Numbered from the stretch's first letter, positions 1 through 18,476 are shown. The stretch is DNA of 64,000 bases from Desulfobacula sp. (GCA_023701135.1 JAMPXP010000018.1:42286-106285); one strand, 5' to 3'. Notes: generated by a model from the sequence alone, not told the origin. A program made the numbers and translations.

Positions 1-1
1 T

Positions 2-787
2 TTTCTCAACCGCAAAATCTATGATGCCAACCCGGTGCTGAGCGACATGTTCATCACCGCCATCTACGTCGTCATCCTCGGCTTCCTCGCCTTTTATGCC
101 ATGAACGACTATCTCAAATCACGCTCCAAGAAAATAGTGATCGAGGAAGGCGCCAAGAAAATTGCCGAAGAGATCCCGCCCATGGGTAAACGCATCCAGT
201 CGGTCAACATTCCGCCCATGCTCACCTTTGACGCGAACATCACCCCGGGGGGCCGCAGGATTTCCGCCATCTTCCTTATCATCAGCGGTTTCATCGTCGG
301 TATGGCCGCCGCCATCATGGGCGTCGGCGGCGGTTTCCTCACCTTCCCGATGTTTGTCTACGGCCTGGGCGTTTCTTCCATGACCACCGTCGGCACCGAC
401 ATCTTCCAGATCGTGTTCACCGCCGGTTATGCCGCCATCAGCCAGTATGCAATCTACGGTTTTATCTTCTACACCCTGGCCATGGGCATGCTGCTGGGCT
501 CCCTGATCGGCATCCAGGTCGGCTCCATCGTCACCAAGGTCGTTCCCGGCACCACCATCCGCGGTTTCTACGCCGTCACCGTGACCGCCGGTTTTCTCAA
601 CCGGGTCTGCGCCCTGCCGGAAAAAATGATGAAAATGGGCTATGTCGAACTGTCCAAGGGTTTTATCACAACCGTCGACATTATCGGCATCGCCGGCTTC
701 TTCATCATCATCACCGCCTTTGCGGCATGGGTTTTCTGGTGCTTTTTCACTAATCTTAAGGTCCTGAAATCAGGGGAGGTGCATTGA
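2..787 (+). CDS. TauE/SafE sulfite-exporter family membrane protein (5' partial; frame is open from the window edge)
   Basis: Frame is open from position 2 (FLNRKIYDANPVLSDMF...). Motif GMAAAIMGVGGGFLTFP...VGTDIFQ and many TM segments. Confidence 0.85.
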   Translation, partial: FLNRKIYDANPVLSDMFITAIYVVILGFLAFYAMNDYLKSRSKKIVIEEGAKKIAEEIPPMGKRIQSVNIPPMLTFDANITPGGRRISAIFLIISGFIVGMAAAIMGVGGGFLTFPMFVYGLGVSSMTTVGTDIFQIVFTAGYAAISQYAIYGFIFYTLAMGMLLGSLIGIQVGSIVTKVVPGTTIRGFYAVTVTAGFLNRVCALPEKMMKMGYVELSKGFITTVDIIGIAGFFIIITAFAAWVFWCFFTNLKVLKSGEVH

Positions 788-789
788 TC

Positions 790-1491
790 ATGGCAAGTTC
801 AGCTCAACTCAAAACCAAAGGATACCTTCTGCTGGCATCCTTTTTCGTGGTCCTGGCGGCCATCTTCATGCCGCTGTTCCCGGGTGCCCAAGGCCAGAAG
901 ATCAATGGCCTCGTCTATCTTGACAATTTTTTCAACCAGTTGTCCAAAAGCTCGGCCTATTACATCCCTGAACAGATAAAGAAAGCGGAAAAATACAATG
1001 GCCAGCAGTTCACCACCTCCTTGAAGATGAAATCGCCCGAGGAGGCCGCATTAACCGCCAAGCTGTTCGCCATGAACCAGATCACCGCCGCAGCCCAGGG
1101 CGACAAGGTACAGGTCAGCGGTGATTACGGCGCCATGATCACCATCATGCTCAAAGATGCCGACCTGATGTTTAAAAATGACGGCCAGGCTCTGAAAGCC
1201 AAATACGGCGTTGATGAGCGGCAGACCGTCTATTCCTGGTATCAGGCTCTGGTGGCCATGGAAAAAGACATGACCAAGGCGGGACAGTTTGAGCAGGCCA
1301 AATTTGTTAAAAACTGCATGTCCAAAGCAGTTGAGCCGGCCTACAACTATTACGAGGTTGAGGCAAAACCGGTGAAGGAGGAGATCTTCCTGTTGGTTGC
1401 CTCCCTCGTTTTCTATGTCATCTACACCATGTGGTACGGTTATGGCCTGTTGTTCCTGTTCGAAGGCATGGGCATCAAACTGGAACACTGA
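790..1491 (+). CDS. Conserved hypothetical membrane protein coupled to the TauE gene
   Basis: ORF abuts the TauE stop; GGAGG RBS before ATG 790; N- and C-terminal TM helices around a soluble domain. Confidence 0.75.
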   Translation: MASSAQLKTKGYLLLASFFVVLAAIFMPLFPGAQGQKINGLVYLDNFFNQLSKSSAYYIPEQIKKAEKYNGQQFTTSLKMKSPEEAALTAKLFAMNQITAAAQGDKVQVSGDYGAMITIMLKDADLMFKNDGQALKAKYGVDERQTVYSWYQALVAMEKDMTKAGQFEQAKFVKNCMSKAVEPAYNYYEVEAKPVKEEIFLLVASLVFYVIYTMWYGYGLLFLFEGMGIKLEH

Positions 1492-1536
1492 TGATCAGCC
1501 CTTGATTTTCTCAGACCCATTGAGAAAAGCTTAAAT

Positions 1537-1573
1537 TTTAGCGTCGCCGGGAGGCATTTCCGGCGGCGCTAAA
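1537..1573. repeat. GC-rich inverted repeat directly before the RBS of the PEP-synthase-like gene
   Basis: TTTAGCGTCGCCGG-gaggcattt-CCGGCGGCGCTAAA; 14-bp stem with one G-U pair; no U-tract on the + strand. Confidence 0.6.
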
Positions 1574-1583
1574 CCAGGAGACG

Positions 1584-4199
1584 ATGAAAAAACTGATCGA
1601 GTTTCTAAAAGATTTTTTTCAAAAAAAACCCCCTGCCGATTCTATAGATGCCGAAACCCTCAGAGCCGCATTTAAAGAACGGTATCATCATTTCAAAATG
1701 CTGTTGAACGCCAACAACAGCGCCCTTGAGACCATGACGGAAATTGAACAGGCCCTTCAGAACCGACGGCCCTTTGGCATGTCGTTTATCAAAAGCAATT
1801 GCATTTCCGTCACCGTGAGCCTGCTTCGCCTCTTGAAAAATCTGGAACAGCTCAGCGATGGAAAATATAACAAGCTTTATGCCCCATTTGATGAAATATG
1901 CAACACCATCCGGGGGTTGATCGAACAAAAAAAAGAAGCCCAGGATGAGCGCCTCATTATCCCCCTTACCGCCATCGACCGGACCCGGGCCGACCTGGTG
2001 GGAAGCAAAATGGCCAACCTGGGAGAGATATTAAATCTTGTCAAACTCAAAGTCCCGGCCGGTTTTTCCATTACGGCCCGGGCCTATGAATATTTCATGT
2101 CCTATAACGATCTTCAGACTGAAATCGACCGACGCTTTGTTTCCACCGATATCACGGATATGGAAGCACTCTATGCCTTAAGCCTGGATATTCAGGCCCT
2201 CATCACGGAGGCCCCCCTCCCGGAAGACCTTGAAAATGAAATTCACCGGGCCTATTCCGATCTTGAGCAGGAGATGGGAGGATCTCTCTCCGTTGCCCTC
2301 CGAAGCAGTGCCATGGGGGAAGATTCTGCTGCCAATTCTTTTGCCGGACAATACCGCTCCGAACTGAACGTCCGCCAAAAAGACCTGATCGCGACCTATA
2401 AGGATATCGTGGCCAGTAAATACGGATTCACTGCCATCACCTATCGTCTTAATAAGGGGATCAGGGATGAGGATATTTTCATGAGCGTGGGGTGCATTGC
2501 CATGGTGGATGCCCGGTCCGGCGGGGTCATGTATACCCGGAATCCCCTGGACTCCGGCGACAGTTCAGTGTTCATCAATTCGGCCTGGGGGCTGCCCAAG
2601 GCGGTTGTGGACGGCAGCGTGGACTGTGACCTGTTTGTGGTGGGTCGGCATCAGCCCATGCAGGTGTCCTACAGGGATATTAAAGAAAAAAAATCCCAGT
2701 TTCTCTGCTATGCCGAAGACGGAGTCTGCCAGCTTGAACTCACCGAAGAGGACAGAAAGGAGCCTTCCGTCAATGATGAGGAGGCCGTGGCCTTGGCAAC
2801 GCTGGCGGTCCGCATCGAGCAGTATTACGGGTCTCCCCAGGATGTGGAATGGGCCATAGACCGGAACGGCACTCTTTTTATCCTTCAATGCCGTCCTTTG
2901 CAGCAGACCGAGGCCCTGAAAATGAATTATCCGGAAGAGCTGATCCAAAAGACCCGTGAAAATGTTCTGGCTTCCGGCGGAACCAATATCTTTCCTGGGG
3001 TTGCCGGTGGCGAGGTCTTCATCATCAACAGCCCTGACGAAATGGTGAATTTCCCCAAAAACGGGATCCTGGTGGCCCGGCAGGCCCTGCCGGTATGGGC
3101 CTCACTCTTAAACAAGGCCTCGGCCGTCCTGACGGAACACGGCACCTTTGCCGGCCATCTGGCCAATGTGGCCAGGGAATTCAAGGTTCCTGCCATTTTC
3201 GGGCTGAAAGACATCGCCGATATATTACACACCGGGGACCTGATCACCGTGGACAGCAGCCTTTTAAGCGTCTATAAAGGGAAAATCGATATCCCGATTC
3301 AAGACCGGGAAACGGAAAAAGACATCATTGAAGGAAGTCCGGTCTACAATATGCTGCTGGAAGTCAGCAAATTCATTATCCCCCTGTACCTTTTAGACCC
3401 CTATTCTCCGGATTTCAAACCGGAAAACTGCAAGACCCTCCATGATATCACCCGGTTTGCCCATGAAAAATCCGTCCATGAAATGTTTAATTTCGGCAAG
3501 GAACATAATTTTTCCGAACGCTCCAGCAAACAGCTCTTTTATAAGGTCCCCATGCAATGGTGGATTTTAAACCTGGATGACGGCCTCAAAGAAGAGAGTC
3601 GGGAAAAATATATCCGGCTTGAAAATATAGCCTCCATTCCCATGATGGCCCTCTGGGAGGGGATCATCGCCGTGCCCTGGGACGGCCCGCCTGCCATTGA
3701 CGGCAAAGGAATGGCCGCTGTCATGTTCCAGTCCACGGCCAACCGGTCCCTTGAACCGGCCATGAAATCTGCCTATACCGAGCGCAATTATTTCATGATT
3801 TCCAAAAATTTCTGTAGCTTCACCTCCCGGTTGGGCTACCATTTTTCCATTGTTGAAGCCCTGGTCAGTAACAGAACGGCTGAAAATTATATCAGTTTCA
3901 GATTCAAGGGAGGGGCCGCGGACAGCCAGCGCCGGATCAGGCGGATCAAATTCATTGCCGATATCCTCACCGGGTATTCCTTCAGGGTTGAACTGCGGGA
4001 GGACAATCTGGTGGCCCGCGTGGAAGGGTATGAGATGGATTATATGCTTGAACGGCTCAATATCCTGGGGTATCTGATCATGCATACCCGGCAACTGGAC
4101 ATGATCATGTCCAACGAATCCGTCATCCGCTATTACCGGGCAAAAATCGATAAGGATATCCAAACCGTGGTTCTCGCAAAAAAAGCATCTGCTTCATAG
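1584..4199 (+). CDS. PEP-synthase/PPDK-like protein (ATP-grasp domain + His swivel domain + unknown C-terminal domain), copy 1
   Basis: VGSKMANLGE, RSSAMGED, SFAGQY, PQDVEWA, LQCRPL, and phospho-His motif GHLANVAREF. No PEP-utilizer C-terminal barrel motifs. Confidence 0.85.
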   Translation: MKKLIEFLKDFFQKKPPADSIDAETLRAAFKERYHHFKMLLNANNSALETMTEIEQALQNRRPFGMSFIKSNCISVTVSLLRLLKNLEQLSDGKYNKLYAPFDEICNTIRGLIEQKKEAQDERLIIPLTAIDRTRADLVGSKMANLGEILNLVKLKVPAGFSITARAYEYFMSYNDLQTEIDRRFVSTDITDMEALYALSLDIQALITEAPLPEDLENEIHRAYSDLEQEMGGSLSVALRSSAMGEDSAANSFAGQYRSELNVRQKDLIATYKDIVASKYGFTAITYRLNKGIRDEDIFMSVGCIAMVDARSGGVMYTRNPLDSGDSSVFINSAWGLPKAVVDGSVDCDLFVVGRHQPMQVSYRDIKEKKSQFLCYAEDGVCQLELTEEDRKEPSVNDEEAVALATLAVRIEQYYGSPQDVEWAIDRNGTLFILQCRPLQQTEALKMNYPEELIQKTRENVLASGGTNIFPGVAGGEVFIINSPDEMVNFPKNGILVARQALPVWASLLNKASAVLTEHGTFAGHLANVAREFKVPAIFGLKDIADILHTGDLITVDSSLLSVYKGKIDIPIQDRETEKDIIEGSPVYNMLLEVSKFIIPLYLLDPYSPDFKPENCKTLHDITRFAHEKSVHEMFNFGKEHNFSERSSKQLFYKVPMQWWILNLDDGLKEESREKYIRLENIASIPMMALWEGIIAVPWDGPPAIDGKGMAAVMFQSTANRSLEPAMKSAYTERNYFMISKNFCSFTSRLGYHFSIVEALVSNRTAENYISFRFKGGAADSQRRIRRIKFIADILTGYSFRVELREDNLVARVEGYEMDYMLERLNILGYLIMHTRQLDMIMSNESVIRYYRAKIDKDIQTVVLAKKASAS

Positions 4200-4206
4200 G
4201 CAGAGA

Positions 4207-6906
4207 TCAGGATTTTGATTCCTCAGCATCAATCAAGTCTTTATGCTCAATAATCAATTCATATTCTGAACTTTCCGGAACCCGGTTGATACGAAAACCG
4301 AGTTTTTTCCCCAGTTTCAGCATCTGGGTATTTTCAGCCAGAACGACGCCGTTAACGCGTTCAAGGCCTTTATCCCACGCTGCTTTCAAACATTGCCCCA
4401 ATAAGGCTGCCCCGATGCCTTTGCCCTGCCATCCATCGGTGATGGCCATGGCAAATTCACCCTGTTTTCCATCAAGATAATCAATGATCCGGCAAACCCC
4501 CACCATTTTTCTGTCCTTGTCCGTTCCCATGAGGGCCACCAGGGCAATCTCCCGGTCATAATCAATCTGGGTCAATTTGATCAGCATTTCCTTTGAAAGC
4601 TTTTTCATGGGGGAAAAAAATCTCATATACACACTTCTGGGGGACAGGGAATTAAAATGCTCGATCAAAAGGTCTGCATCACTGGGCCGGATGGGGCGGA
4701 TAAAGAAGTCCTGGCCGTCCACACTCTGCAATGTGGATTCATACTGCCAGGGGTAGGAGCTGATAATGAGGTGCCTGGGTCTTGGAACCGCTGAAGGGCC
4801 GATCAGAACCCTGGCGTCTACGGCCATCATCTCTCCGTTCTTCACCATGAGCGGGTTAATATCCAGGGCTTGAATTTCAGGAAAATCCGTGACCAGCCTT
4901 CCAACCCGGATCAAAAATTCCTCTACCATGGCCATACCGGCCGGGGGAAGATTTCTAAATCCCTTGAATACCCTTGATATTCGCGTCTTTTCAATCATCT
5001 GCCGGGCCAGGGGCCGGTTCAGGGGCGGCAGGCCCATGGCCGTGTCCTTATAGACCTCGGTCAGGATTCCTCCCATACCGAAAAGAAGAACAGGACCGAA
5101 ATGATCGTCTTTTTTGGCGCCGATGATGAGTTCATAATCCGCCTTGGGCTGCATTTTCTGAACCGACACCCCTCTTATCCGGGCATCCGGCGCAAACGCC
5201 CTGGCGCTTTTCATGATCCCGGCATAGGCGGCCATGACCTCTGCCGATGTTTTCAAATCCAGAACCACTCCATTACAGTCGGATTTGTGCAGGATATCTT
5301 TGGAACAGATTTTCAGAACCACCGGAAATCCGATCTGCTCGGATATTTCCGCAGCCATTTGCTCTGAATCGGCCATTTTTGTCACATTGGCAGGAATTCC
5401 ATAGGATTTCAAAAGTTCCTTGGCCCCGATTTCCGTAAGACTGGTTTCTCCCGCAGCAACTGCCTCATGAATGATCTGCCTAGCCTTCTGGCGGTTGATC
5501 ACCAGTTTGGTATCGGTCCTGACCGGAATCTCCTGGAGCATTTCAATATGTTTGCCGTATTGATAAAGATTTTTAAAGGCCCGGACCGCTCTTTCGGCGG
5601 AATCATAGGTTACAATACCGGCTTCATTAAAAACTTTTCTTGAGCTTTCAACATTGATTCCGCCGATCCAGGCGGTAAAAACAGGACAGGGAAAGGTTTT
5701 TATCTCCTCTGAAAGGGCCTTTGCCAGGCCCAGGATATCCATGGTACCGACGGGTGAGCAGATCAGGAGCAAGGCATCGGTTTCCGGTGCATTGGCGCAG
5801 ATCCGGGCGGTTTTAAGGTAAATTTCCCTTCCTGAATCCCCAAGGATGTCGATGGGATTTCCCCGGCTCCAGTTGGCCGGCAGAATCCGGTCCAGTTGAC
5901 CCAGGGTTTCCGCTCCAAGCTGGGCCGGTTCAATGCCGTGGGCGGAGAGAGCGTCCGCCGCCATGACACCGGGCCCTCCGGCATTGGTAATGATGGCAAG
6001 GCCTGAACCACCTGGCCGCCGCTGCTTTGCAAGGAATTCGGTACAGTCGAACAGTTCTTCAAATTCATTGACCCTCAGTATCCCGGCACGCTGAAATGCC
6101 GCATCATACAAGGCATCTTCCCCGGCCATGGCCCCGGTATGGGAGGCGGCTGCCATGGCTCCGGCCTTGGACCGGCCGGCCTTCAGGACAATAATGGGTT
6201 TCACCCGGGAAACGGCCCTGGCCGCACTCATGAAATTCCGGATATGGGTGATGTTTTCCATATACATGACAATGCTGCCCACGGAATTTAAGGAGCCGAA
6301 ATAATCGATCATATCGGCAAAATCCACATCCAGCATGGAGCCGAGGCTGACAAAATGACTAAATCCCACATGGTTTCGATGGGAAATATCCAGCACCGAG
6401 GTGCACACGGCCCCGCTCTGGGATAAAAAGGCAATCTTTCCGGGTAAGGGAGAAAGGTGGGCAAAGCTGGCGTTTAAAGATATGCCTGTATTGACAAACC
6501 CAAGGCAATTGGGACCGATGATCCTCAGGTTATTTTTTTTAGCCGTCTGAAGGATCGTCTCTTCCATCTGCCTGCCCTTGAGTCCGACTTCCTTACCGCC
6601 GGATGATATGATGACAACACCGGCAAGGCCTGCATTGCCGCAGGACTCCATGATTTCAGGCACCGTCCGGATGGGGGTGGCAATCACGGCCATATCAATG
6701 GCTGAATCTGCGTCCTCAATGCGGGCAAAGGATTTTTGGCCCATAATTTGGCTGTGTCCCGGATTTACCGGGATGATATTTCCTTTGAATCCTTGGCCCA
6801 GAAGATTTTTCATGATCAAAAATCCGACAGATCCTTCTTTTTCGCTTGCTCCGACAACAGCAACGGTTTTCGGATTAAAAAGCCTGTGCAAATTGACTGT
6901 AGTCAT
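4207..6906 (-). CDS. NDP-forming acyl-CoA ligase family protein fused to a C-terminal GNAT (Pat/YfiQ-type protein acetyltransferase)
   Basis: VAVVGAS, IIGPNCLG, SQSGA, ASHTG, NPIDILGD, ATP-grasp LDINPL, then GNAT with GWQGKGIG. Confidence 0.9.
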   Translation of the reverse strand: MTTVNLHRLFNPKTVAVVGASEKEGSVGFLIMKNLLGQGFKGNIIPVNPGHSQIMGQKSFARIEDADSAIDMAVIATPIRTVPEIMESCGNAGLAGVVIISSGGKEVGLKGRQMEETILQTAKKNNLRIIGPNCLGFVNTGISLNASFAHLSPLPGKIAFLSQSGAVCTSVLDISHRNHVGFSHFVSLGSMLDVDFADMIDYFGSLNSVGSIVMYMENITHIRNFMSAARAVSRVKPIIVLKAGRSKAGAMAAASHTGAMAGEDALYDAAFQRAGILRVNEFEELFDCTEFLAKQRRPGGSGLAIITNAGGPGVMAADALSAHGIEPAQLGAETLGQLDRILPANWSRGNPIDILGDSGREIYLKTARICANAPETDALLLICSPVGTMDILGLAKALSEEIKTFPCPVFTAWIGGINVESSRKVFNEAGIVTYDSAERAVRAFKNLYQYGKHIEMLQEIPVRTDTKLVINRQKARQIIHEAVAAGETSLTEIGAKELLKSYGIPANVTKMADSEQMAAEISEQIGFPVVLKICSKDILHKSDCNGVVLDLKTSAEVMAAYAGIMKSARAFAPDARIRGVSVQKMQPKADYELIIGAKKDDHFGPVLLFGMGGILTEVYKDTAMGLPPLNRPLARQMIEKTRISRVFKGFRNLPPAGMAMVEEFLIRVGRLVTDFPEIQALDINPLMVKNGEMMAVDARVLIGPSAVPRPRHLIISSYPWQYESTLQSVDGQDFFIRPIRPSDADLLIEHFNSLSPRSVYMRFFSPMKKLSKEMLIKLTQIDYDREIALVALMGTDKDRKMVGVCRIIDYLDGKQGEFAMAITDGWQGKGIGAALLGQCLKAAWDKGLERVNGVVLAENTQMLKLGKKLGFRINRVPESSEYELIIEHKDLIDAEESKS

Positions 6907-6977
6907 CGTTACCCCTCATCCCTTCATAAGTTCACAAGAATACCCATCCCGATTTAAAAATCGAATATCGTGCCAGG

Positions 6978-7916
6978 CTAGGGCACTATCCATACCGTCA
7001 TCTCTCTTGCCCCCTGAATGGCCTTCCAGGGAATGGACCCGATATCAAAATTGTCAACATCCGACTTTCCCTTCCGGCCAAAGACCAGGGTATCGCAATT
7101 TTCTTCCATGGCTGCGGAAATAATGGCTTCCGACCGGCTATCGGCGCCCTGGATGAGTTTAACGGTAATTCTTTTTTTCTGGATCCCGGCTTTTTCAAGC
7201 TCGCCTTCAGCACTTTGAATCGCAGCATCAAGCTCTTCAAATACCGCTTTAACAAAACCGGGCGGTTTTTTCTTCCCGGCTTTTACATCATAGAGGTTAA
7301 AATCCCTCAGCACACTGCACAGCACAACCCTGCAATCCGAATTTTGAATCATATTGGCCGTAAATGTAACGGCTCTTTTGGAACATTCCGAACCGTCAAG
7401 GGCCAGAAGCAGAGAATGATTCACCTTCTGGATGCCGGCCAGCATGATGGGAATATAACCGGCTTTTTCAACGAGCTTGGTTGAAACGCTCCCCATGATA
7501 AAGGGCAACAGGGTCCTTGACCCGCCGCGTCTTCGGATAAGAAGGGCATCATACCCTTTTTGGGCTTCGTCCATAATATCCCTTGCAATCCCGCTTTTCC
7601 TTTCGGCGATGACAATGCTGATGGCTTCGGGGTTAAATCCCGCTGCTATCAACTGCATTCTTGCTTTTTCCATGAACTCTTCCATCTGGGCTTTGTATGC
7701 GTTTTCCCAGGCATAAACGGCAGAGGTTGCTCCTGCGCTGAAGGTTTCTTTTTGCAGATCGTAATAACATACGGGAACCTTTGTAATAATATTGTGTAAT
7801 ACCAGTTTCTTTTTTAAAAACGGCTTAAAGCTGCAAAGGTACTGGACGGTTCGAAAGGCCCTTTCAGAACCGTCAAGGGCCACGAGTATTTTATTGCTAT
7901 TGTCGGCCATTATCAT
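6978..7916 (-). CDS. Universal stress protein, tandem USP domains
   Basis: ILVALDGSE and LLLALDGSE starts; MGSVSTKLV and IGSIPWKAI ends. Confidence 0.9.
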   Translation of the reverse strand: MIMADNSNKILVALDGSERAFRTVQYLCSFKPFLKKKLVLHNIITKVPVCYYDLQKETFSAGATSAVYAWENAYKAQMEEFMEKARMQLIAAGFNPEAISIVIAERKSGIARDIMDEAQKGYDALLIRRRGGSRTLLPFIMGSVSTKLVEKAGYIPIMLAGIQKVNHSLLLALDGSECSKRAVTFTANMIQNSDCRVVLCSVLRDFNLYDVKAGKKKPPGFVKAVFEELDAAIQSAEGELEKAGIQKKRITVKLIQGADSRSEAIISAAMEENCDTLVFGRKGKSDVDNFDIGSIPWKAIQGAREMTVWIVP

Positions 7917-7953
7917 TTCTCCTTTTGTAAACGGTTATATTCTATGATGAGGT

Positions 7954-8433
7954 TCAGAGTTTGGAGCGCAAACTCATTACCGGGATCGGGGAATGCCGGA
8001 AGAGTTTTTCCGCCACACTTCCGAACAAAAATCCCTCAAGATTGGATCTTCCCTTGGGTCCGAAAATCAAAAAATCAATATCTTCCATATCAATGGCTGC
8101 CAGAATTTCCACATAGGGGACCCCGTGACCAATCCGTATCCTTACTTTTTTTTCATCCAGGCTACCGGCATTTTTGACCATGGCCCTGAGTTTTAATTCA
8201 CGGCGTCCTGATTCTTCTGCCAGATGCTTTGACAGAATAAAACTGTCCGGCCGGGCCTTGTTCACTGCATGTTCAACCTGATCAATGGATTTTTGATTGA
8301 TAATATGGATGACACAAATATCGGCATTTGTGAGCCTTGATATTTTTCCCGCATATTCCAGCACCTGCCTTGAATAAAGGGAGAAATCCACGGCAGCCAT
8401 CACATTTCTGATTTTTTCGGTGCTTTCTTTCAT
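7954..8433 (-). CDS. Universal stress protein
   Basis: VMAAVDFS ... GPKGRSNLEGFLFGSVAEKLFRHSPIPV. Confidence 0.92.
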   Translation of the reverse strand: MKESTEKIRNVMAAVDFSLYSRQVLEYAGKISRLTNADICVIHIINQKSIDQVEHAVNKARPDSFILSKHLAEESGRRELKLRAMVKNAGSLDEKKVRIRIGHGVPYVEILAAIDMEDIDFLIFGPKGRSNLEGFLFGSVAEKLFRHSPIPVMSLRSKL

Positions 8434-8434
8434 T

Positions 8435-8932
8435 TTATTTCTCCCTTTTAAACTTGGCCCTTTCCCTGACGCTGACCACCGGAACCGGTGAATGACGGAA
8501 TACTTTTTCCGCCGCGCTTCCGAACAGGACCCGTGAAATATTGCTCCGGCCTTTGTTGGCCATTACCACAAGGTCAATATGTTCAGTTTCTATGGCCTTG
8601 AGGATACATTCAAAGGGAATCCCCACATCAATTTTGATTTCCATCCTGGACTTTTGATCAAAAAACCCATCCTTTATCATTTGTTTTAATTTTTCAGATC
8701 TTTCGTTTTTCAAATCCCGGATATAATCATCCGTATTGATAACATTGGTAAATGAACCGGGATAATAGCTGAAAACCATTTCCGCACCGGCAATATCTCT
8801 CTGGTTAATGACGTTGAAGACCAGAATCTGTGTGTCGGTCCCCTGGGAAAGGGCTACGGCATATTCCAGAACCATGGGTGAGTATTGGCTGAAATCAACA
8901 CAGGCGAGGATTTTTCGAATATTCTGATTCAT
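8435..8932 (-). CDS. Universal stress protein
   Basis: KILACVDFS ... KGRSNISRVLFGSAAEKVFRHSPVPV. Confidence 0.92.
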   Translation of the reverse strand: MNQNIRKILACVDFSQYSPMVLEYAVALSQGTDTQILVFNVINQRDIAGAEMVFSYYPGSFTNVINTDDYIRDLKNERSEKLKQMIKDGFFDQKSRMEIKIDVGIPFECILKAIETEHIDLVVMANKGRSNISRVLFGSAAEKVFRHSPVPVVSVRERAKFKREK

Positions 8933-9062
8933 GTCTTATCTCCTTTATGGGTTTGTCTCCGATGAGACGTTCAAAGAATTGACCCTATCGGTCATTGTTT
9001 TTTCGTTTCCTGCATCCATAATAATTTCGCAGGCAAGGGTACGATCCTGGGCCTTTGCATTT

Positions 9063-9533
9063 TCATTGTTTTGGAAGCCTCAAACTTAAAACTGGAACCG
9101 GAGAATGCCGGAACACTTTCTCACAAACCCCGCCGGTCAAAAAATCAGGAAGATCGGATCTGCCTTTCTGACCAATGACCATGAAATCCGTTTCTCCTTC
9201 CTTAAGAAATTTCAGGATTTCAACGGAGGGAACCCCTTCGTTGATAATGGTTTGAAAATGAATATCATCGGCCTTGGCATTTTTGATGAGGGCTTCCATT
9301 TTTGATGCACAGCGTTTTTTTTCGCGGGCCACATAATCGGCATAGGGAAAATATTCCAAATGATCCATCTCAAACTGCCGTTTAACACAATCAATGGCTT
9401 TTCTATTGATGATATGGATGACGCTGATCCCGGACCCGGTCCGCCGGGCAAGATGAACGGCATAGTCCAGGATGGATTGTGAATATTCTGAAAAATCAAG
9501 GGCAACTGCCATGTTTTTTATCTTCCGGTTCAT
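9063..9533 (-). CDS. Universal stress protein
   Basis: MAVALDFS ... GQKGRSDLPDFLTGGVCEKVFRHSPVPV. Start moved to ATG 9533 behind an AAGGAG RBS. Confidence 0.9.
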   Translation of the reverse strand: MNRKIKNMAVALDFSEYSQSILDYAVHLARRTGSGISVIHIINRKAIDCVKRQFEMDHLEYFPYADYVAREKKRCASKMEALIKNAKADDIHFQTIINEGVPSVEILKFLKEGETDFMVIGQKGRSDLPDFLTGGVCEKVFRHSPVPVLSLRLPKQ

Positions 9534-9546
9534 TTTATAATCTCCT

Positions 9547-10230
9547 TTATCCATTCACCAATCGTCTTAATCCCCTTGACAGATCTGCTACATAATACAG
9601 ATCCCCTGCTTCATGAAGCTTTTCCACTACACCATCAAACCGTGACGGATCAATGTCAAAGGTATGGAAAAACACTTTTCTATAGCCTTCATTCATATCG
9701 TCATAGGAGGTCATGATGCTGCAAAGCCTGCCTCCGTTGCTCCGGATGATATCTGAAAGGACTTTGATGATGCCGGGTCTATCCTGGATGGTAAAGGCGA
9801 AAATCTGGCCTTTATTGGATACTCCGGTAAAAGAAACAAAGCATCTGAAAATATCGCTCTTGGTGATGATGCCCTCAATATATCCTTTCCCGGTCACCAC
9901 CGGCATGCCGGAGATCCCTTTTTTCAGCATGATGACGGCGGCTTCATCAACGGTATGGTCCCCCTGGATGGTGATGACGGGGCTGGACATGACTGTCTCG
10001 ACTTTTACGGAATCCAGCAATGCAGGGATTTCAAAACGGTCCAGAGATGTGGCCTCCGACGGCATGGCTTTTTTGATGTCCCCGTCGGTCAGAATGCCGG
10101 CCAGTTTTCCATCCTTTAGCACAGGCAGCATGGATATCAACCGGGTTTTAAATTTTTTGGCAGCCTCATTCAGTGATTCATCATGATCGATCAAAATCAC
10201 GGGTTTGCTCATCCATTCTTTAATCAACAT
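9547..10230 (-). CDS. acuB: CBS-pair + ACT domain protein (AcuB-like)
   Basis: Two CBS repeats (LPVLKDGKLAGILTDGDI; GIITKSDIF) followed by ACT-like IQDRPGIIKVLSDII. Confidence 0.8.
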   Translation of the reverse strand: MLIKEWMSKPVILIDHDESLNEAAKKFKTRLISMLPVLKDGKLAGILTDGDIKKAMPSEATSLDRFEIPALLDSVKVETVMSSPVITIQGDHTVDEAAVIMLKKGISGMPVVTGKGYIEGIITKSDIFRCFVSFTGVSNKGQIFAFTIQDRPGIIKVLSDIIRSNGGRLCSIMTSYDDMNEGYRKVFFHTFDIDPSRFDGVVEKLHEAGDLYYVADLSRGLRRLVNG

Positions 10231-10299
10231 GGTCTCCTCCCATATATCTGTATATTTATGATTTTTCCGTTCATATCAGCTTATCCACGACCTGTACTG

Positions 10300-10315
10300 A
10301 GCAATTGTTGTGCCA
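10300..10315 (-). promoter_or_regulatory. sigma54 (-24/-12) promoter upstream of the acuB-like/USP genes
   Basis: Minus-strand TGGCAC-AACAA-TTGCT, an exact consensus match, 70 nt before the start codon. Confidence 0.85.
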
Positions 10316-10476
10316 GTTTCATAAAATTATCCAAAACCCTTGAAATTCAGTCTGGTTGAACCGATGGCAATTGAATATCAGTCCTGTTTCATGAAAATGG
10401 GTCAAAGAGAATCTATCAACCTGAAAAAAAACCTGACAGGAGACCGGGAGGATGGGTTCGTTATAAAGAAGGCGTG

Positions 10477-11148
10477 TTATGAAAGAAGGCCGAACCGAAG
10501 CAGCTTAAACTCATCCTGAATTTCCCGGGAGATCTTTTTGCCCGTTCTGACCATGAACAGATTCTCAGGTTTCAAGCAAATATTGGGTTCATTGGTTTGA
10601 AATTCAAGGAAACCGGCCGGCCTATACAAAGAAAGAAGCATATCCCTGTAGGACAGGACCGTGAACCCGGGATAGGCAAGGTCCCAGGTCCAGGAATAGG
10701 CGGTCAGGTAGATAATTTTTTCTTCTACAAAATCCTCTGAAAAGAGACAGGCCAGAAGTTGCCGGGCAATGCCGTGATTCCGGAATTCCCTCAATACCTC
10801 AACCGCTTTCAATTCCATGGCAATTTTAGGGTCCGAGAGGATCCATCGCTCATTTTTATCGGGGAAATCAAGAACGGCAAATCCGACAATAATTTTATGT
10901 TCCAAAAGGGCGAGAGCAACCCTCCCGCCCTTTTCGATAATACCTTGAAGGCTTTTTTTGGTGCAGTGTGTCAGCCTGTAAGCAGCCGAATGACAGGTTT
11001 CAAAGGGGAAGGAAAGACCCTTAAACACCCCCGGATTCCTAGCCGATTGAATATAGACAGCGCCCTTTTGCGTTTCAATGGAAGCCTGGCTCATCTTTTT
11101 ATGAGGGTGTTCACTATTTTTCGGATCCGAATTTCTGTTCAAAGGCAC
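10477..11148 (-). CDS. acuA: AcuA-like GNAT protein acetyltransferase
   Basis: ERW...ELKAVEV..EFRNHGIA and YSWTWDL...YR...TNEPNI..KPENLFMVRTGK..S.E...F..LRF are collinear with Bacillus AcuA as I recall it. An alternative start is ATG 11094. Confidence 0.75.
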   Translation of the reverse strand: MPLNRNSDPKNSEHPHKKMSQASIETQKGAVYIQSARNPGVFKGLSFPFETCHSAAYRLTHCTKKSLQGIIEKGGRVALALLEHKIIVGFAVLDFPDKNERWILSDPKIAMELKAVEVLREFRNHGIARQLLACLFSEDFVEEKIIYLTAYSWTWDLAYPGFTVLSYRDMLLSLYRPAGFLEFQTNEPNICLKPENLFMVRTGKKISREIQDEFKLLRFGLLS

Positions 11149-11848
11149 ATGCCACTATGGTTGCTGCCTGAAAAATTCCCTTAATATGATCCATATTGAT
11201 AACCATGTCAAACTCATCCGGGCTGGTTTCTTTTTTCTGGTAAACCGCCTTGAAAAATTCGTGCTGTTCTGCATCGCAGATTTCCAGTTGGCGTTCAGCC
11301 TCGGATTTGCCGATATTCATCATCCGGGCCAGCCGGTCCACCCGATAGTCTTTGCTGCAGATAAACCGGACCGACAATACTGAATTTCTCGGCAGAATAA
11401 GATGGGTTCCCCTTCCCACAAAAATGGTAGGCTCGCTGGCGGCGAGAGCAGTCACTGTTTTGGCAAGCTGCCTTGCATAATCGCTTTTAATAAACGTTTT
11501 TTCACTGATCAGCATTGAAAAAAGTTCACTGGCTCGGCCGGGATAGCGCTCATCATAGAATTCAATCATTTTCTGGGACAGTTTGGCGTCCTTGGCCATG
11601 TGCTCCAGAATTTCCCTGTCAATAACCCTATAGTGGATCATTCCGGCGAGAAGGTCTGCGATTTCCAGTGCGCCCACACCGATCTGCCGGGAAAAGCAGA
11701 CGCTGGGCAAAATGCCGGGCTTTTTGTCCGCCTGTTTTTTATCGGCCTCGTCCTGTGTGTATTTTTTAATATACCGGTCTGCCCATTCAGCGGCCGACTG
11801 TCTCTTTTTCCCGTAAAACCCTGGTTTATATCCTGTTTTCTGATTCAT
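11114..11848 (-). CDS. Cytidylate-kinase-like family protein
   Basis: CFSRQIGVGALEIA, IFVGRG, FDMVIN motifs of the CMP-kinase-like family. Confidence 0.8.
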   Translation of the reverse strand: MNQKTGYKPGFYGKKRQSAAEWADRYIKKYTQDEADKKQADKKPGILPSVCFSRQIGVGALEIADLLAGMIHYRVIDREILEHMAKDAKLSQKMIEFYDERYPGRASELFSMLISEKTFIKSDYARQLAKTVTALAASEPTIFVGRGTHLILPRNSVLSVRFICSKDYRVDRLARMMNIGKSEAERQLEICDAEQHEFFKAVYQKKETSPDEFDMVINMDHIKGIFQAATIVACAFEQKFGSEK

Positions 11849-11943
11849 TTGTCATCTCCTTTGTAAATTTGTTTCTCCAAAATGGTTAATATATTGACAA
11901 CTCTTCGAGTCTTTTTTTTAATTTTTTCAATGCACCGGATGGG

Positions 11944-12387
11944 TTAACCCGGACCCTGCTTTTTTTTATACCAGTCCTCATTGCCGTAGAGCTTATTCAT
12001 GCATTCGTGACAAAGGCCATGGGTAAATGAAGCATTGGATCTGCGCTCTATATAAGTCTCAATATTTTGCCAGCCCTTTTCCCCATCCCTGATTTTTTTG
12101 CAGGAAGAACAGATGGGAAGCAATCCTTCCAGAATCTGAATCTTTGATAAAAGCCCCAGCGTCCGTCTGATGCAGATAAAACCGACCATGAGAATCATGA
12201 TGCTTTCAAAAATACTTTCAACCATGTTTACGGGAGTTGCCATGCTTTTGAACAAATAATGGGGCAGGTCATAAATTTCATCCAGCCAGAGGAAAAGAAA
12301 GATGACTCCAAATCCCGCTGTTTCGTAAAAAATAACTGTTTTCAGATGATACGGGTTGATTTTTATTTGCCTCATATCTTCATCCAT
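11944..12387 (-). CDS. Membrane protein with C-terminal CxxC...CxxC domain
   Basis: Two TM segments, then LEGLLPICSSCKKIRD...FTHGLCHECM. Confidence 0.75.
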   Translation of the reverse strand: MDEDMRQIKINPYHLKTVIFYETAGFGVIFLFLWLDEIYDLPHYLFKSMATPVNMVESIFESIMILMVGFICIRRTLGLLSKIQILEGLLPICSSCKKIRDGEKGWQNIETYIERRSNASFTHGLCHECMNKLYGNEDWYKKKQGPG

Positions 12388-12428
12388 AATTTTTCTCCTT
12401 ATGGGCCGGCTGACTTACCCTGATTATC

Positions 12429-12444
12429 AGCAATTGGCGTGCCA
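12429..12444 (-). promoter_or_regulatory. sigma54 promoter
   Basis: Minus-strand TGGCAC-GCCAA-TTGCT, 42 nt upstream of the 12387 start. Confidence 0.85.
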
Positions 12445-12629
12445 AAGGCTTAAAATCAATCAAAACCCTTATGAGAAAGATGTTTTCCCCTGATAAAAAC
12501 GATGGAAAAAACCGTTATCCATGGGGGGGTTCCCATAACTCTTTTCAAACCGTAAAAAAAACAGACACCTCAATCCCATTTGAGGATAAAGACAAGTGTC
12601 TTTCCGGCACATATTGATCCCTATTCTGA

Positions 12630-12645
12630 TGGCATATTAATTGCT
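12630..12645 (+). promoter_or_regulatory. sigma54 promoter
   Basis: TGGCAT-ATTAA-TTGCT upstream of the REC-CBS gene, divergent from the 12429 promoter. Confidence 0.8.
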
Positions 12646-12710
12646 GTTTCATATTCTTAGCAATAAAAGGAAGAATCCTTAAATATGGAATCTATTTCAT
12701 GGAGGCAGCT

Positions 12711-13565
12711 ATGCAACATCAAATAAAAGTTTTATTGGTGGATGATGAGGACCGTTTCTGTGAAACGACATCAAAACTTTTGACCAAAAAGGGGTTTGAT
12801 ACCGCCATTGCCAATAATGCTGAAAAGGCCATCCATCTTTTAAAAGGCAATAAGCGAGATGTTATTGTTCTGGATATCCAGATGACCGGAATGGACGGAC
12901 ATACAGCCCTCCACGAGATCAAAAAAACCGACCCCGATATCCAGGTCATCATCCTTACCGGTCATGGAAGCAGGTATTCAGCCATGCGGGCCCTTGTCAG
13001 GGAAGCATTTGACTATCTCGCCAAACCCTGCGATGTGGACATCCTTGCATCCAGAATCCATGACGCCTATCTCGCCAAGCACCGGGGATTTAAATTTGAT
13101 GACAAAAAAGCATTGAACCTCATGATTCCGATCCATGAGCTTAAATCCATCCCTGCCGACATGGGGCTCAAGGAGGCCATGGCCATGGGTGAAGGATTCC
13201 TGGCCGTTATGGACGAAAGAAAAATGCTGGCCGGGATACTGACCCGTATGGATATCATCCGGTCGGTCCGGCCGGAATATATTTCCGGTGGAGGAACGTT
13301 TAATGAACAAAGCTCACGGTTTTCATCCATGTTCTGGTCCGGGTTCTTTTCAGACCGGGTAAAAGCCGTTTCCCAGAAAAAAGTCTGGGAAATTCTCTCC
13401 GACCCTCAACCTACCATCAGTGAAAACGCCAATCTTCTGGAAGTCGCCCATATGATATCCGGAACAACGGGAGGCGTTCTGCTGGTAAAAGATATTTCAA
13501 AGGTAATCGGGATTATCCGGGATGAGGATATTTATTCTGAAATAGAATCCCTCATGAAAAAATAA
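12711..13565 (+). CDS. Response regulator: receiver domain + CBS pair
   Basis: LLVDDE, VLDIQM, LTGHG, LAKP, then CBS-like AGILTRMDII and GIIRDEDI. Start at ATG 12711 behind GGAGG. Confidence 0.85.
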   Translation: MQHQIKVLLVDDEDRFCETTSKLLTKKGFDTAIANNAEKAIHLLKGNKRDVIVLDIQMTGMDGHTALHEIKKTDPDIQVIILTGHGSRYSAMRALVREAFDYLAKPCDVDILASRIHDAYLAKHRGFKFDDKKALNLMIPIHELKSIPADMGLKEAMAMGEGFLAVMDERKMLAGILTRMDIIRSVRPEYISGGGTFNEQSSRFSSMFWSGFFSDRVKAVSQKKVWEILSDPQPTISENANLLEVAHMISGTTGGVLLVKDISKVIGIIRDEDIYSEIESLMKK

Positions 13566-13580
13566 CAGCCGGCCAGTGTG

Positions 13581-14117
13581 TTAGGGCCTGAAAAAGGCGG
13601 GAAACAAAGAAAAGGCTAAAAAGACATAAACCGCCATGCTGATGAACGGTATCAAGATGGCCGGTTTCCATGATAATTTTCCTGCATTTCTGAATCCGGT
13701 ATAGATCAGCCACCATTTCCAGAGTTCCGTGACCCAGAAGAAAAAAGACATCCAGGAGAGCAGCAGCATCATCCCCGACGAAAAGGCATGGATGCTGAAT
13801 ATGGTTTCAAAGCCGGTTTTTCGTCCAACGGTTACGGTCATGATGCCGTAGCTGACACAGGCGGAAAAAAAGGTCATGCCCAGACTGCCGAGAAAAAATA
13901 GGGCTCCTGTCTCCACAGGATGGGCATGATTGGTGATAAGAAGGCTTGCCCCTGTATAAAAAACGGCGCACAGGATACAGAATCCCAAAGATTTCAATAT
14001 GGATGAATTGTCCGGCAATTCCGTAAAAAACCGTTTGGGTTCAATCAGAATCTGGATTAAGGCATATCCATAGAACTGAAAGGATTTCAATACTTTTCCA
14101 GGCAGCAAAAAGGCCAC
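13581..14117 (-). CDS. YIP1-family membrane protein
   Basis: LIEPKRFFTEL followed by several TM helices. Probable GTG start at 14117 with a GAGGGG RBS; the ORF track extends it into the upstream gene. Confidence 0.7.
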   Translation of the reverse strand: MAFLLPGKVLKSFQFYGYALIQILIEPKRFFTELPDNSSILKSLGFCILCAVFYTGASLLITNHAHPVETGALFFLGSLGMTFFSACVSYGIMTVTVGRKTGFETIFSIHAFSSGMMLLLSWMSFFFWVTELWKWWLIYTGFRNAGKLSWKPAILIPFISMAVYVFLAFSLFPAFFRP

Positions 14118-14127
14118 GGGAACCCCC

Positions 14128-14541
14128 TCATAAATTTTTAATTTGAGCCACCCTGATTTTCTCTTCGACCCGCTGACGTTTCTCAAAGGCGTCCAGGGCT
14201 TTTTCCAGGATCTGGTCGATATCGGCAGGTTTCATAAGATAGTCAAAGGCGCCGTTTTTAAGACCGTCTATGGCTGAATCCACTGTGGCATGGCCAGTCA
14301 ATAGAATGATCTCAACCAGGGGATACAACATCTTAGCGGCTTTCAAGGTTTCATTGCCGTCCATGCCCGGCATCTTCATATCCAGAATCACCACATGGAC
14401 ATCCTGGTTTTTAAGTTTTTGAAGGGCCTCTTCTCCACTCCGGGCCGTAAAAACCTCATATCCTTTTTTTTCAATCAATTTTGCAGTGGTCTGGAGGTAT
14501 CGTTCTTCGTCATCCACCAGCATTAATTTCATCTTTTCCAT
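14128..14541 (-). CDS. Single-domain response regulator receiver
   Basis: MLVDDE, ILDMKMPGMDG, LTGHA, YLMKP. Confidence 0.92.
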   Translation of the reverse strand: MEKMKLMLVDDEERYLQTTAKLIEKKGYEVFTARSGEEALQKLKNQDVHVVILDMKMPGMDGNETLKAAKMLYPLVEIILLTGHATVDSAIDGLKNGAFDYLMKPADIDQILEKALDAFEKRQRVEEKIRVAQIKNL

Positions 14542-14569
14542 GGATATTCTCCTGTCTTATGTATGGTGT

Positions 14570-16282
14570 TTATGGTGTTGCTGCCGGCAGAATAATAATA
14601 AAAGCCGTTCCTGTCCTGTCTTCACTTTGCACTTCCATTGTTCCGCCAAAGCTTTCTATGATTCCGTAACAGACGGATAATCCGAGACCGGTTCCCTTGC
14701 CCACAGGCTTGGTGGTAAAAAACGGGGAAAAGATCTTGGAAAGATTTTCCCGGCTGATGCCTGTGCCGTTGTCTGTGATCTTGATGGTAAGGAATTTTTC
14801 ATCTTTTATTCCGGTCTCGATTTTCAACATTCCTCCCTTTGATCCATGGCGTTCAATGATGGCGTCCATGGCATTATTAAATAGGTTCAGCATCACCTGC
14901 TGAAACTGGGAAGGGTCTCCCATGAATTTGGGCGAATGTTCGGAAAAATACTGGATGATTTCAATCCCGTTCACCTCTGCCTTTTTCTCAATCATGTGAA
15001 CAATTTCCGGGATGATACGGCAGGGGTTGAGTTCCTGCTGGCGGACCTCATTTTTTCTACCGAATCTTAAAATGGCATGGGTAATATCCGAGCAACGGTT
15101 CACCTGGAGTTTGATCTGGGATAGGGAATCCTCAATCTCATTGATATCCTGCTTTTCTCCGGTATCTATTTTACCGGACAAATCTTCCAGAATGCTTTCA
15201 ATCAGTGCATGTTCGCTTTTTATAATCTGGAGGGGGTTATTGATCTCATGGGCAAATCCGGCAGCCATTTCACCGATCTCCGCCAATTGGGCCGCCCGGA
15301 TCAGTTGGTTTCCCAGATTTTTCTTTTCCCGGCCCAGCTTTTCAATCTGCTTCAGAATGCGGTCGGTGATAAAAGTGGCCACCACAATGATCACGGCAAG
15401 ACCGATAATCATGATGACCAAATTAATATAAGCAGCCGTATATAAGAACCGGTAGGCGTCTTTTTTTTCCTGCCTGACCACCAGCATCCATTCCTTATCT
15501 TTGAGCCAGGTGGTGGCATAGAGATATTTGATGCCTGAAGAATCGGTTTTAATAAAGGTGTGTATCAATTCTTCGGATTTGGAGAGGTCTGCAAATTCAG
15601 GGTCTTTCTCCATGACCTGGATATTTGAAGATCGTCTCTCAGATTGAGAGATCCCGTCCTTATTCAAAATATAGGCTTCTCCAGTCTTCCCGATTCTCAC
15701 CTGGGAAATCATTCTGTCAAAATATAAGGTATCAATGGTGGCTCTCAGGACCCAGGTATGTTCACCGCGGCCGTGTCTTATGGCAACAACGAAATGGGGA
15801 ATCCGCCTGTACCCGAGAAAAACATCGCTGATATAGGATCCGTTCTGCATGACCTGTTTGAACCAGAATTCATCTGCATAGGTCTTCCCCTGAAGTTCGT
15901 ATTTGCCCGAATACCGGACATGGATCCCTTGCGGATCAAAGAGTCCCAGGTCTATAAAGGCGCCGGATTGTTTTTTCAAATTTTCAAAAATCGTATCAAT
16001 GGCCTGTTGCTCGTTGATCTCATCATATGGGAAGGCATTGGTGACAAATTCCAGGTCGGCTTTCCGCTCGAGAAGAAAGGATTCGATCATGTTCCTGTGG
16101 TCGGATACGATCCGTTTCATGCTTGCTTCAGTATTATTCTCAAGGGAGGTTGTAAAATAATAAAAACTGACGCCTATGGCCATCATAAAGGGGATCAAGG
16201 GAACGATGATCATATTGACCAGAATGAATCGCCTGAGTTTATCCGCTTTTTGAGCCTCTTGAAGGGTTGTATCATCCGTCAT
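14570..16282 (-). CDS. Sensor histidine kinase (extracytoplasmic Cache-like domain, HisKA, HATPase)
   Basis: Two TMs; [37 protein letters not shown]. Start at 16282 chosen because a sigma54 site lies at 16335-16350. Confidence 0.9.
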
Positions 16283-16334
16283 ATGTTTAGCCTTTACAAA
16301 ATATAAAAATTTTTCATCGGGTTTACATTCTAAC

Positions 16335-16905: not shown

Positions 16906-16922
16906 ATTCCTTCCTTTATCCG

Positions 16923-18428: not shown

Positions 18429-18476
18429 ATGGTTCTCCTTATAGTGGCCTGATTCTCACATCAGTTTTTCAGATTA

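Follow-up and report, generated by a model that had tools for sequence, protein, structure and literature searches.

Predicted sigma-54 operons in Desulfobacula link AcuA- and Pat-type acetyltransferases with an AcuB-fold protein and universal stress proteins

The 64,000-nucleotide stretch analyzed here, from the genome of a sulfate-reducing Desulfobacula sp. (C40:42286-106285 of a 4.8-Mb, 42-contig assembly whose nearest relatives are Desulfobacula metagenome-assembled genomes (MAGs); hereafter, the window) contains a minus-strand gene cluster that runs from position 12387 down to 4207 in the order hyp147, a cytidylate-kinase-like (CMK-like) gene, acuA, an acuB-like gene, three single universal stress protein (USP) genes, a tandem USP gene and pat. 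Judged from the sequence, these genes form two operons (hyp147/CMK-like/acuA and acuB-like/four USPs/pat), each starting at a perfect sigma-54 promoter with the same upstream element at 123 nt. Taken as a whole, the cluster may represent a stress or energy-limitation regulon under sigma-54, specific to the lineage of Desulfobacula and its close relatives, that deploys acetyltransferases, a reading that we hold to be about evenly balanced between right and wrong. All of the parts belong to known families, while the arrangement, the sigma-54 control and the AcuC-less AcuB-fold protein are undescribed in the literature searched, in which no description of this cluster was found. The features of the two operons are listed below, with domain calls from Pfam and NCBIfam and coordinates given as window positions.

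4207-6906, minus strand: Pat/PatZ-type lysine acetyltransferase, 899 aa (Pfam and full-length PatZ match)
6978-7916, minus strand: tandem USP, 312 aa, two USP domains (PF00582; ATP motif G-2x-G-9x-G-S intact in the C-terminal domain)
7954-8433, minus strand: USP, 159 aa (PF00582; ATP motif intact)
8435-8932, minus strand: USP, 165 aa (PF00582; ATP motif near-intact, A-2x-G-9x-G-S; 1 nt from the next USP gene)
9063-9554, minus strand: USP, 163 aa (PF00582; start overlaps the acuB-like stop by 8 nt)
9547-10230, minus strand: predicted AcuB-fold protein, 227 aa, CBS pair plus ACT (Pfam, PDB match, AlphaFold2 model and Foldseek)
10300-10315, minus strand: predicted sigma-54 promoter TGGCACaacaaTTGCT of the acuB-like/USP/pat operon (exact consensus, 69 nt before the acuB-like ATG)
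10417-10438, minus strand: upstream element TGTCAGGTTTTTTTTCAGGTTG, candidate activator-binding site (conservation; 123 nt before the -24 box)
10477-11094, minus strand: AcuA-family GNAT, 205 aa with the likely start at 11094 (223 aa in the longest open reading frame (ORF), which extends to 11148)
11114-11848, minus strand: CMK-like protein, 244 aa (PF13189; stops 16-19 nt before the acuA ATG)
11944-12387, minus strand: small membrane protein hyp147, 147 aa, ending in a four-Cys module (opens the upstream operon)
12429-12444, minus strand: second perfect sigma-54 promoter match TGGCACgccaaTTGCT (exact consensus, ~40 nt before hyp147)
12546-12567, minus strand: upstream element again, TGTCTGTTTTTTTTACGGTTTG (spacing to the -24 box 123 nt; between two divergent promoters)

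An earlier note on this DNA had described two unrelated acetylation enzymes around four USPs, and its gene list, order and coordinates were borne out by Pfam and ORF calls. The GNAT gene that it had set at 10477-11148 is in the right place, although the likely start is the ATG at 11094, as in orthologs of 204-210 aa. PF00582 was matched in all four USP genes, giving five USP domains. The motif G-2x-G-9x-G(S/T) of the ATP-binding UspFG/MJ0577 class of USPs is matched exactly by 7954-8433 and by the second domain of 6978-7916, while the other two genes deviate from it by one residue.

Transcriptional control was assessed by scanning for the sigma-54 consensus TGGCAC-N5-TTGCW. The 64-kb window holds two exact matches, both in the cluster (10300-10315 and 12429-12444), and the first is the promoter that had been proposed between the acuA-like and acuB-like genes. 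Among 20 orthologous loci, 18 have a sigma-54 promoter before the AcuB-like gene; it lies 55-80 nt before the ATG in 15, and in three of the 18 a USP gene or a longer spacer intervenes. The second sigma-54 promoter also recurs in relatives, before either the CMK-like gene or hyp147. The promoter regions of both operons can be aligned and share, exactly 123 nt before the -24 box, the pattern TGTC(A/T)G-T8-(C/A)(A/C)GG-T(1-2)-TG. With a regular-expression scan, the shared element TGTCAGnTTTTTTTnCAnnTTG was found 120-124 nt upstream of the promoter in 16/18 relatives. Genome-wide, a loose form of the element with a sigma-54 site within 260 nt occurs three times, and the two instances with a spacing of 123 are the two cluster operons. 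The third, on another contig, has a spacing of 108 nt and a weaker element and was not counted as a regulon member; there (C35:87010-91508), the weak element and sigma-54 consensus precede a 570-aa protein with no Pfam match, a CooS-type CO dehydrogenase and a ferredoxin (CooF). A further candidate sigma-54 site in the USP-to-pat spacer, TGGCACgatatTCGAT, was rejected as the GC element at -12 is missing.

The genome encodes rpoN, and a candidate activator emerged from the related loci. An NtrC-type activator gene (REC/AAA+/HTH_8) is found inside the cluster in two relatives: between acuA and the acuB-like gene in a Desulfotignum MAG (L013), and immediately ahead of the promoter in L138, one of the genus genomes. 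Its ortholog here, C40:32158-33582, lies ~10 kb before the window start and is 81% identical, the next of ~40 activators reaching 41%; this protein is likely the cognate activator of the regulon. Sigma-54 control of stress genes is plausible because a related genus is without RpoS (PMC4046663). Being small, with a defined promoter, element and candidate activator in cultivable Desulfobacula, the regulon is experimentally tractable. In two relatives, a CitMHS-type transporter gene is inserted among the USPs and reads as two or three ORFs, from frameshifts or assembly errors (L005:2791-4138 and L006:12043-13818); the insertion in L006 comes with its own copy of the upstream element and a sigma-54 promoter before the next USP.

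Conservation across relatives was examined from both ends of the cluster. In the AcuA-family search, 80 loci were kept and an AcuA ORF was called in 67. The order CMK-like, AcuA, promoter, AcuB-like, USPs and Pat occurs in 11/67 AcuA loci, all Desulfobacula- or Desulfotignum-like, and the CMK-like gene precedes AcuA in 11/11 loci of that clade. Searching from the AcuB-like gene, we found the promoter, the AcuB-like gene (sometimes duplicated) and one to four USPs in 17/17 genus loci. Pat then follows in 12/16 evaluable loci, and AcuA with the CMK-like gene precedes in 8/16. AcuA itself is present in 25/121 family genomes and in six of ~20 sampled in the genus, is absent from one complete 5.2-Mb genome of the genus and, in L123, is reduced to a 39-residue remnant between the CMK-like and acuB-like genes. 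In two genomes Pat is replaced, the operon running on with a HAD-GH65 fusion, a GT20 trehalose-6-phosphate synthase and CstA. USPs are the genes most constantly linked to the locus.

From these genus tallies, the stable unit is a sigma-54-driven CBS-ACT plus USP stress cassette, to which acetyltransferases are attached in most, not all, lineages. Chance juxtaposition of the genes was rejected on the basis of synteny and promoter conservation. The earlier pairing of AcuA with AcuB as a unit did not survive this comparison, as the constant companions of the AcuB-like gene are USPs and the sigma-54 promoter, and AcuA is optional across the genus loci. The synteny favors a role of the AcuB-like protein on the USP/Pat side over one on the AcuA/AcuC side. 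Outside this clade, other Desulfobacterales carry AcuA after a 184-aa GNAT, with enoyl-CoA hydratase, SDR and thiolase genes nearby and no AcuB, USP or Pat. This pairing of the 184-aa GNAT with an AcuA-family protein (L076:9310-9864 and 31 other loci, for example L128:8228-8782) is a widespread, separate two-GNAT arrangement.

Pfam detects the CBS pair alone in the AcuB-like protein. A PDB search aligned it end to end with Thermus TTHA0829 (5awe, E = 3e-30); Bacillus and Geobacillus AcuB structures followed at E ~1e-13, with TTHA0829 and archaeal CBS proteins scoring higher in this forward search. The AlphaFold2 model, built with 20 orthologs, has a predicted local distance difference test (pLDDT) value of 87.6 and shows a complete beta-alpha-beta-beta-alpha-beta ACT domain at residues 142-216. 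Foldseek ranks 1-19 for the model were 5awe and then 18 Bs, Gs or Gt AcuB chains (E 1e-20 to 1e-15, 22-24% identity, ~205-220 columns). Conversely, the best match of GsAcuB in this genome is the AcuB-like protein (27% identity, E = 4e-16), by a modest margin over the next CBS protein (E = 1.7e-12). Because of these full-length TTHA0829 and AcuB matches in sequence, model and Foldseek, the protein is predicted to have the AcuB fold. The identity proposed earlier for this CBS-ACT protein was thus supported by the genome's best match to GsAcuB and by the full-length fit of the model to AcuB crystal structures. It was weakened by the missing R33/H34 pair discussed below and by the AcuC-binding stretch: the HMMER alignment with GsAcuB stops at residue 181, before the ACT segment that contacts AcuC (Gt R184-Y202, M188 and W206). 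The function of AcuB was assigned only in 2026, as an inhibitor of AcuC in Firmicutes, and the deacetylase AcuC, bound through the ACT domain, is its only experimentally shown target (PMC13039410, PMC13121692). The retention of an AcuB-fold protein here, in a phylum and in gene surroundings that lack AcuC, with USPs as constant and Pat as usual neighbors, therefore offers a place to ask for other AcuB-type targets.

One such possibility, raised in the earlier note, is that the AcuB-like protein and the USPs are trans-acting, nucleotide-gated regulatory subunits of Pat and/or AcuA that replace the Bacillus AcuB-AcuC axis. The genome has no class-I AcuC, and the acuB-like gene is followed at once by the USPs, and in 12/16 loci by Pat, and is translationally coupled to the first USP. 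Precedents can be cited as well: ACT domains fused to GNATs regulate actinobacterial acetyltransferases (PMC6434083), and a 2021 review proposed that AcuB might regulate AcuA in trans (PMC8556138). We nevertheless consider this unlikely, given that AcuC is the sole AcuB target shown and that the AcuB-like/USP unit also occurs without Pat (L123, L125, L136 and L138) and without AcuA (L122, L124 and L126). Since the unit occurs without either enzyme, the AcuB-like protein cannot be an obligate subunit of Pat or AcuA.

The AcuA-like GNAT was assigned by searches in both directions. In the PDB it matched B. subtilis AcuA (9g7f_C) at E = 6e-24, with query residues 14-219, the C-terminal extension included, on chain residues 3-204, and an Exiguobacterium AcuA homolog at E = 2e-20; no GNAT outside the AcuA family scored below E = 0.1 in this search, the best being E = 0.17. 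When BsAcuA, read off the 9g7f alignment, was searched against the genome, the AcuA-like protein was the sole significant match (30% identity over 204 aa, E = 1.6e-28; next E = 0.8). The protein keeps D82, E85, E97, E102, R108, W138, W140 and D141 (BsAcuA numbering). Four of these, E102, W140, R108 and D141, correspond to E117, W155, R123 and D156 in the 223-aa translation and are invariant across 14 homologs. In AcuA, E102 is the general base, W140 binds acetyl-CoA, D82/E85/E97 form an acidic ring and H139 is tied to an acetyl-phosphate (Pta-like) route (PMC11255334). E135 is replaced by Ala and H139 by Thr, the latter change making the WHW motif read WTW here and in all 14 aligned Desulfobacterota homologs; with Thr at this position, the protein is predicted to be inactive with acetyl-phosphate plus CoA. 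The GNAT at 10477-11148 is accordingly classified by sequence as an AcuA-family member: the reciprocal search places it inside the AcuA clade, as the earlier note had supposed, and the catalytic residues are conserved.

Five domains, CoA_binding_2, Succ_CoA_lig, Ligase_CoA_2, ATP-grasp_5 and GNAT, were recognized in the large protein encoded at 4207-6906. Its full-length match to E. coli PatZ (9it0; E = 1e-163 across 870 residues) shows it to be, as had been proposed, a true Pat/PatZ homolog. The GNAT catalytic glutamate E817 aligns with PatZ E809, and the acetyl-CoA motif QGKGIG is present. The protein also keeps a phosphohistidine loop, AASHTGAMAG, near-identical to that of the two stand-alone ADP-forming acyl-CoA synthetases (ACDs) of the same genome, at a position where E. 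coli PatZ has a four-residue gap and no His. In a check that covered the swinging-loop His, the loop was kept in 14/16 Pat-type proteins scanned, including all cluster orthologs except the one in L008, which the pattern did not match. The genome encodes two further Pat paralogs. The 907-aa copy at C17:7033-9756 has an intact His loop, and genes nearby encode a glucan phosphorylase, a P-type cation ATPase, a glycosidase and another CMK-like protein. In the 815-aa copy at C41:14171-16618, the His loop is gone and the ATP-grasp domain is incomplete. No description of His-retaining Pat enzymes was found in the literature searched. The characterized enteric enzyme, SePat, is unable to make acetyl-CoA, which was attributed to loss of the synthetase catalytic His (PMC3195501); a Pat with an intact loop would therefore test whether the large Pat domain can be catalytic.

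The same loop raises the alternative that this Pat is mainly an active ADP-forming acyl-CoA synthetase, making ATP from acyl-CoA in starvation or acetyl-CoA from acetate, with the GNAT domain serving self-regulation or a local acetyl-CoA supply. In its favor, AASHTGAMAG is a nearly exact match to bona fide ACDs, is kept in cluster orthologs and is deleted in PatZ and the C41 paralog; the defect of SePat was ascribed to loss of this very His, and the NCBIfam ACD model scores high. That score is below cut-off, however, the highest full-length similarity is to PatZ, the GNAT catalytic Glu and acetyl-CoA motif are intact and two stand-alone ACDs are already encoded, making this alternative very improbable in our estimation. 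Only slightly less doubtful is a combined proposal, in which the AcuB fold has been re-used without AcuC in Desulfobacteraceae and, together with ATP-binding USPs, would gate a synthetase-active Pat. Adenylate status would then directly control both local acetyl-CoA formation and lysine acetylation of the many acyl-CoA synthetases in the cell, as a deacetylase-independent, sigma-54-induced brake.

The earlier note had found no deacetylase in view. This is true of the window and of every related locus read: the contig of the window has no PF00850 or PF02146 match, and no HDAC or sirtuin gene is adjacent to the locus in ~30 loci examined. Elsewhere in the genome the claim does not hold, since two PF00850 genes (on C3 and C9) and two SIR2 (sirtuin) genes (on C4 and C25) are present. 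The C3 protein (754 aa) has an acetylpolyamine-amidohydrolase (APAH)-like HDAC domain fused to a C-terminal GNAT, and the C9 protein (436 aa) is HDAH/HDAC6-like. Class-I HDACs are absent from the best 60 PDB matches of these two homologs, the nearest being of APAH, HDAH, HDAC6 and HDAC4 types (class II/APAH). The genome check for AcuC and CobB thus returned no class-I AcuC and two sirtuins, and what the cell lacks is an AcuC ortholog, not deacetylases as such. With respect to potential acetylation targets, the genome encodes 36 AMP-binding (AMP-forming) ligases.

These distant deacetylases allow a scheme in which the AcuB-like protein inhibits one of the class-II HDAC-like deacylases, or a sirtuin, in trans; once induced, the operon would then drive acetylation up while its reversal is blocked. 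The full AcuB fold fits this scheme, as does the structural literature on AcuB-AcuC, in which the ACT domain of AcuB sits around the rim of the HDAC active site, a surface common to the HDAC fold. Against it, no HDAC or sirtuin gene adjoins any of the ~30 loci, the AcuC-contact residues of AcuB fall in the segment that does not align and the HDAH-like gene sits in an unrelated operon. A ~440-aa HDAH-like gene is present in 15/15 genus genomes carrying the AcuB-like gene, a co-occurrence without weight, as only genomes carrying the AcuB-like gene were searched. On balance we regard inhibition in trans as rather improbable. Two observations concern the HDAC homologs themselves. The HDAC-GNAT fusion (C3:37739-40003), a deacylase and an acyltransferase in one chain, has a ~260-aa unassigned N-terminus, an ATP-grasp gene upstream and a USP gene (C3:40699-41280) ~700 nt downstream. 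On C9 (209398-213338), the HDAH-like gene lies between an EpmA/PoxA-like truncated lysyl-tRNA-synthetase paralog and a hydantoinase-family gene, apparently in one operon.

The USPs might alternatively be substrates of the Pat with which they are co-expressed, in parallel to the mycobacterial cAMP-dependent acetyltransferase and its USP. For MsPat, a USP is the physiological substrate (PMC8556138); in addition, USPs are the most constant members of the locus and a further USP gene lies beside the HDAC-GNAT fusion. Their persistence in the operon where Pat is absent, and the different GNAT type of MsPat (a cNMP-binding domain plus GNAT), speak against this explanation, to which we give only a small chance, comparable to that of the deacetylase scheme. 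In either case, the locus is a place to ask what USPs do beside acetyltransferases.

In the regulon reading that we prefer, a kinase/NtrC-type pair would induce the two operons, most likely under energy limitation or stress. Acetylation by Pat, joined by AcuA in the genomes that have it, would then strike the catalytic lysine in a subset of the 36 AMP-forming acyl-CoA synthetases and stop the drain of ATP to AMP, while the CBS-ACT protein and the ATP-type USPs would report adenine-nucleotide status. Sirtuins or class-II HDAC-like enzymes encoded elsewhere would reactivate the synthetases, and the AcuB-like protein would work with the USP/Pat set, rather than with AcuA/AcuC. The stress and energy theme is drawn from the USP ATP motifs, the trehalose/CstA genes as alternative cargo, the C17 Pat paralog among glycogen and ion-pump genes and the lack of RpoS in the related genus. 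The target of the AcuB-like protein itself may be Pat, the USPs or a distant deacetylase.

Several points weigh against this regulon reading. The phosphate-bridging R33/H34 of AcuB are S33/M34 in the AcuB-like protein, nearly invariant across 20 orthologs, and R51 is K53; generic G-h-h-T-x-x-D CBS motifs are present. With R33/H34 lacking, even nucleotide binding is therefore not assured. The intact phosphohistidine loop may mean that the main activity of Pat is other than protein acetylation. None of the 36 AMP-forming ligase genes, acetyl-CoA synthetase included, is on contig C40, which leaves the choice of target to pure inference. Finally, we infer from conservation only that the upstream element is the activator-binding site.

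Compared to the acsA-acuABC locus of Bacillus and Geobacillus, the cluster likewise holds an AcuA-family GNAT with E102, W140, R108 and D141 and a predicted AcuB-fold protein, a few hundred bases apart on one strand. It differs in having no acuC, no class-I HDAC in the genome and no divergent acsA, and in placing acuA and the acuB-like gene in separate predicted sigma-54 operons, with the latter linked to USPs and Pat. Whereas acuC is normally translationally coupled to acuB, the next gene here encodes a USP. At the residue level, H139 of BsAcuA is replaced by Thr and R33/H34 of AcuB by Ser/Met; the modeled ACT domain has the full six-element fold, while BsAcuB is without the last strand. The Salmonella and E. 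coli Pat (PatZ, YfiQ)/CobB system offers the same four-module Pat architecture end to end, a conserved GNAT Glu and, as here, sirtuins in the genome. Unlike enteric Pat, the Desulfobacula enzyme retains the ACD phosphohistidine loop, is encoded in a predicted sigma-54 operon behind CBS-ACT and USP genes and is one of three paralogs per genome.

Rhodopseudomonas palustris, an anaerobic aromatic degrader with many AMP-forming acyl-CoA synthetases, uses the acetyltransferases Pat and KatA and the deacetylases LdaA (HDAC-type) and SrtN (sirtuin). Its second acetyltransferase is not known to belong to the AcuA family, and we know of no clustering of R. palustris Pat or KatA with USP or CBS-ACT genes. 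In mycobacteria, the protein acetyltransferase MsPat/KATmt is also tied to a USP, although it is of a different type (cyclic-nucleotide domain plus GNAT); the tie in Desulfobacula is known from gene neighborhood alone, and adjacency of MsPat/KATmt to its USP substrate genes is, to our knowledge, not known. The M. tuberculosis DosR regulon and the B. cenocepacia lxa locus (PMC3721108) offer a further parallel: here too, one response regulator would govern a CBS-pair protein and a set of USPs, with gene content on storage carbohydrate, ion pumping and metabolic shutdown. In the strictly anaerobic Desulfobacula host, in contrast, control would pass through an NtrC-type sigma-54 activator that has an upstream element of its own, and the regulon includes acetyltransferases.

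Flanking features that are conserved or related to the regulatory sites are as follows.

4188-4204, minus strand: terminator-like hairpin and T-run directly 3' of the pat stop codon (consensus match alone)
12630-12645, plus strand: sigma-54-like promoter TGGCATattaaTTGCT facing the divergent REC-CBS gene (1 mismatch)
12699-13565, plus strand: receiver-domain plus CBS-pair protein (REC-CBS), 288 aa (conserved neighbor)
13581-16339, minus strand: dCache histidine kinase, single-domain response regulator and Yip1-domain protein (conserved flanking operon)
16335-16350, minus strand: sigma-54-like site AGGCACcatagTTGCT at the kinase start (1 mismatch; weak, overlaps the longest-ORF start codon)
16449-16470, plus strand: upstream element, third occurrence, TGTCAGTTATTTTTTCAGTTTG (separated by ~100 nt from the promoter-like site of the kinase)

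Element-like sites before the kinase gene were also seen in L007, L008, L122 and L124. Sigma-70 promoter and terminator scans were no richer than shuffles, and the region is not enriched for terminator-like sites; an Rfam scan of window positions 1-20000 found no RNA family. The tail of hyp147 reads CSSCKKIRD...W...THGLCHEC, and the same ~60-aa module, for which no Pfam family was matched, ends at least 10 other proteins of various lengths in the same genome. A 1006-aa protein with predicted C-terminal membrane helices is encoded directly downstream of Pat in eight related genomes (for example, L008:16908-19928, L013:16995-20048 and L029:16360-19380). The copy in this genome (C40:34251-37271) lies ~5-8 kb before the window start and adjoins the candidate sigma-54 activator. 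The protein gave no Pfam, NCBIfam or PDB sequence match, and its AlphaFold2 model from six orthologs (pLDDT 39) was not used. Two paralogous PEP-synthase-like proteins (PPDK_N plus mobile His domain) are encoded at 1584-4199 and 20247-23024; they are 35% identical and have long C-termini without assignment. The gene at 1584-4199 runs toward pat, the two stop codons being 7 nt apart, in a neighborhood that the nearest relatives share.

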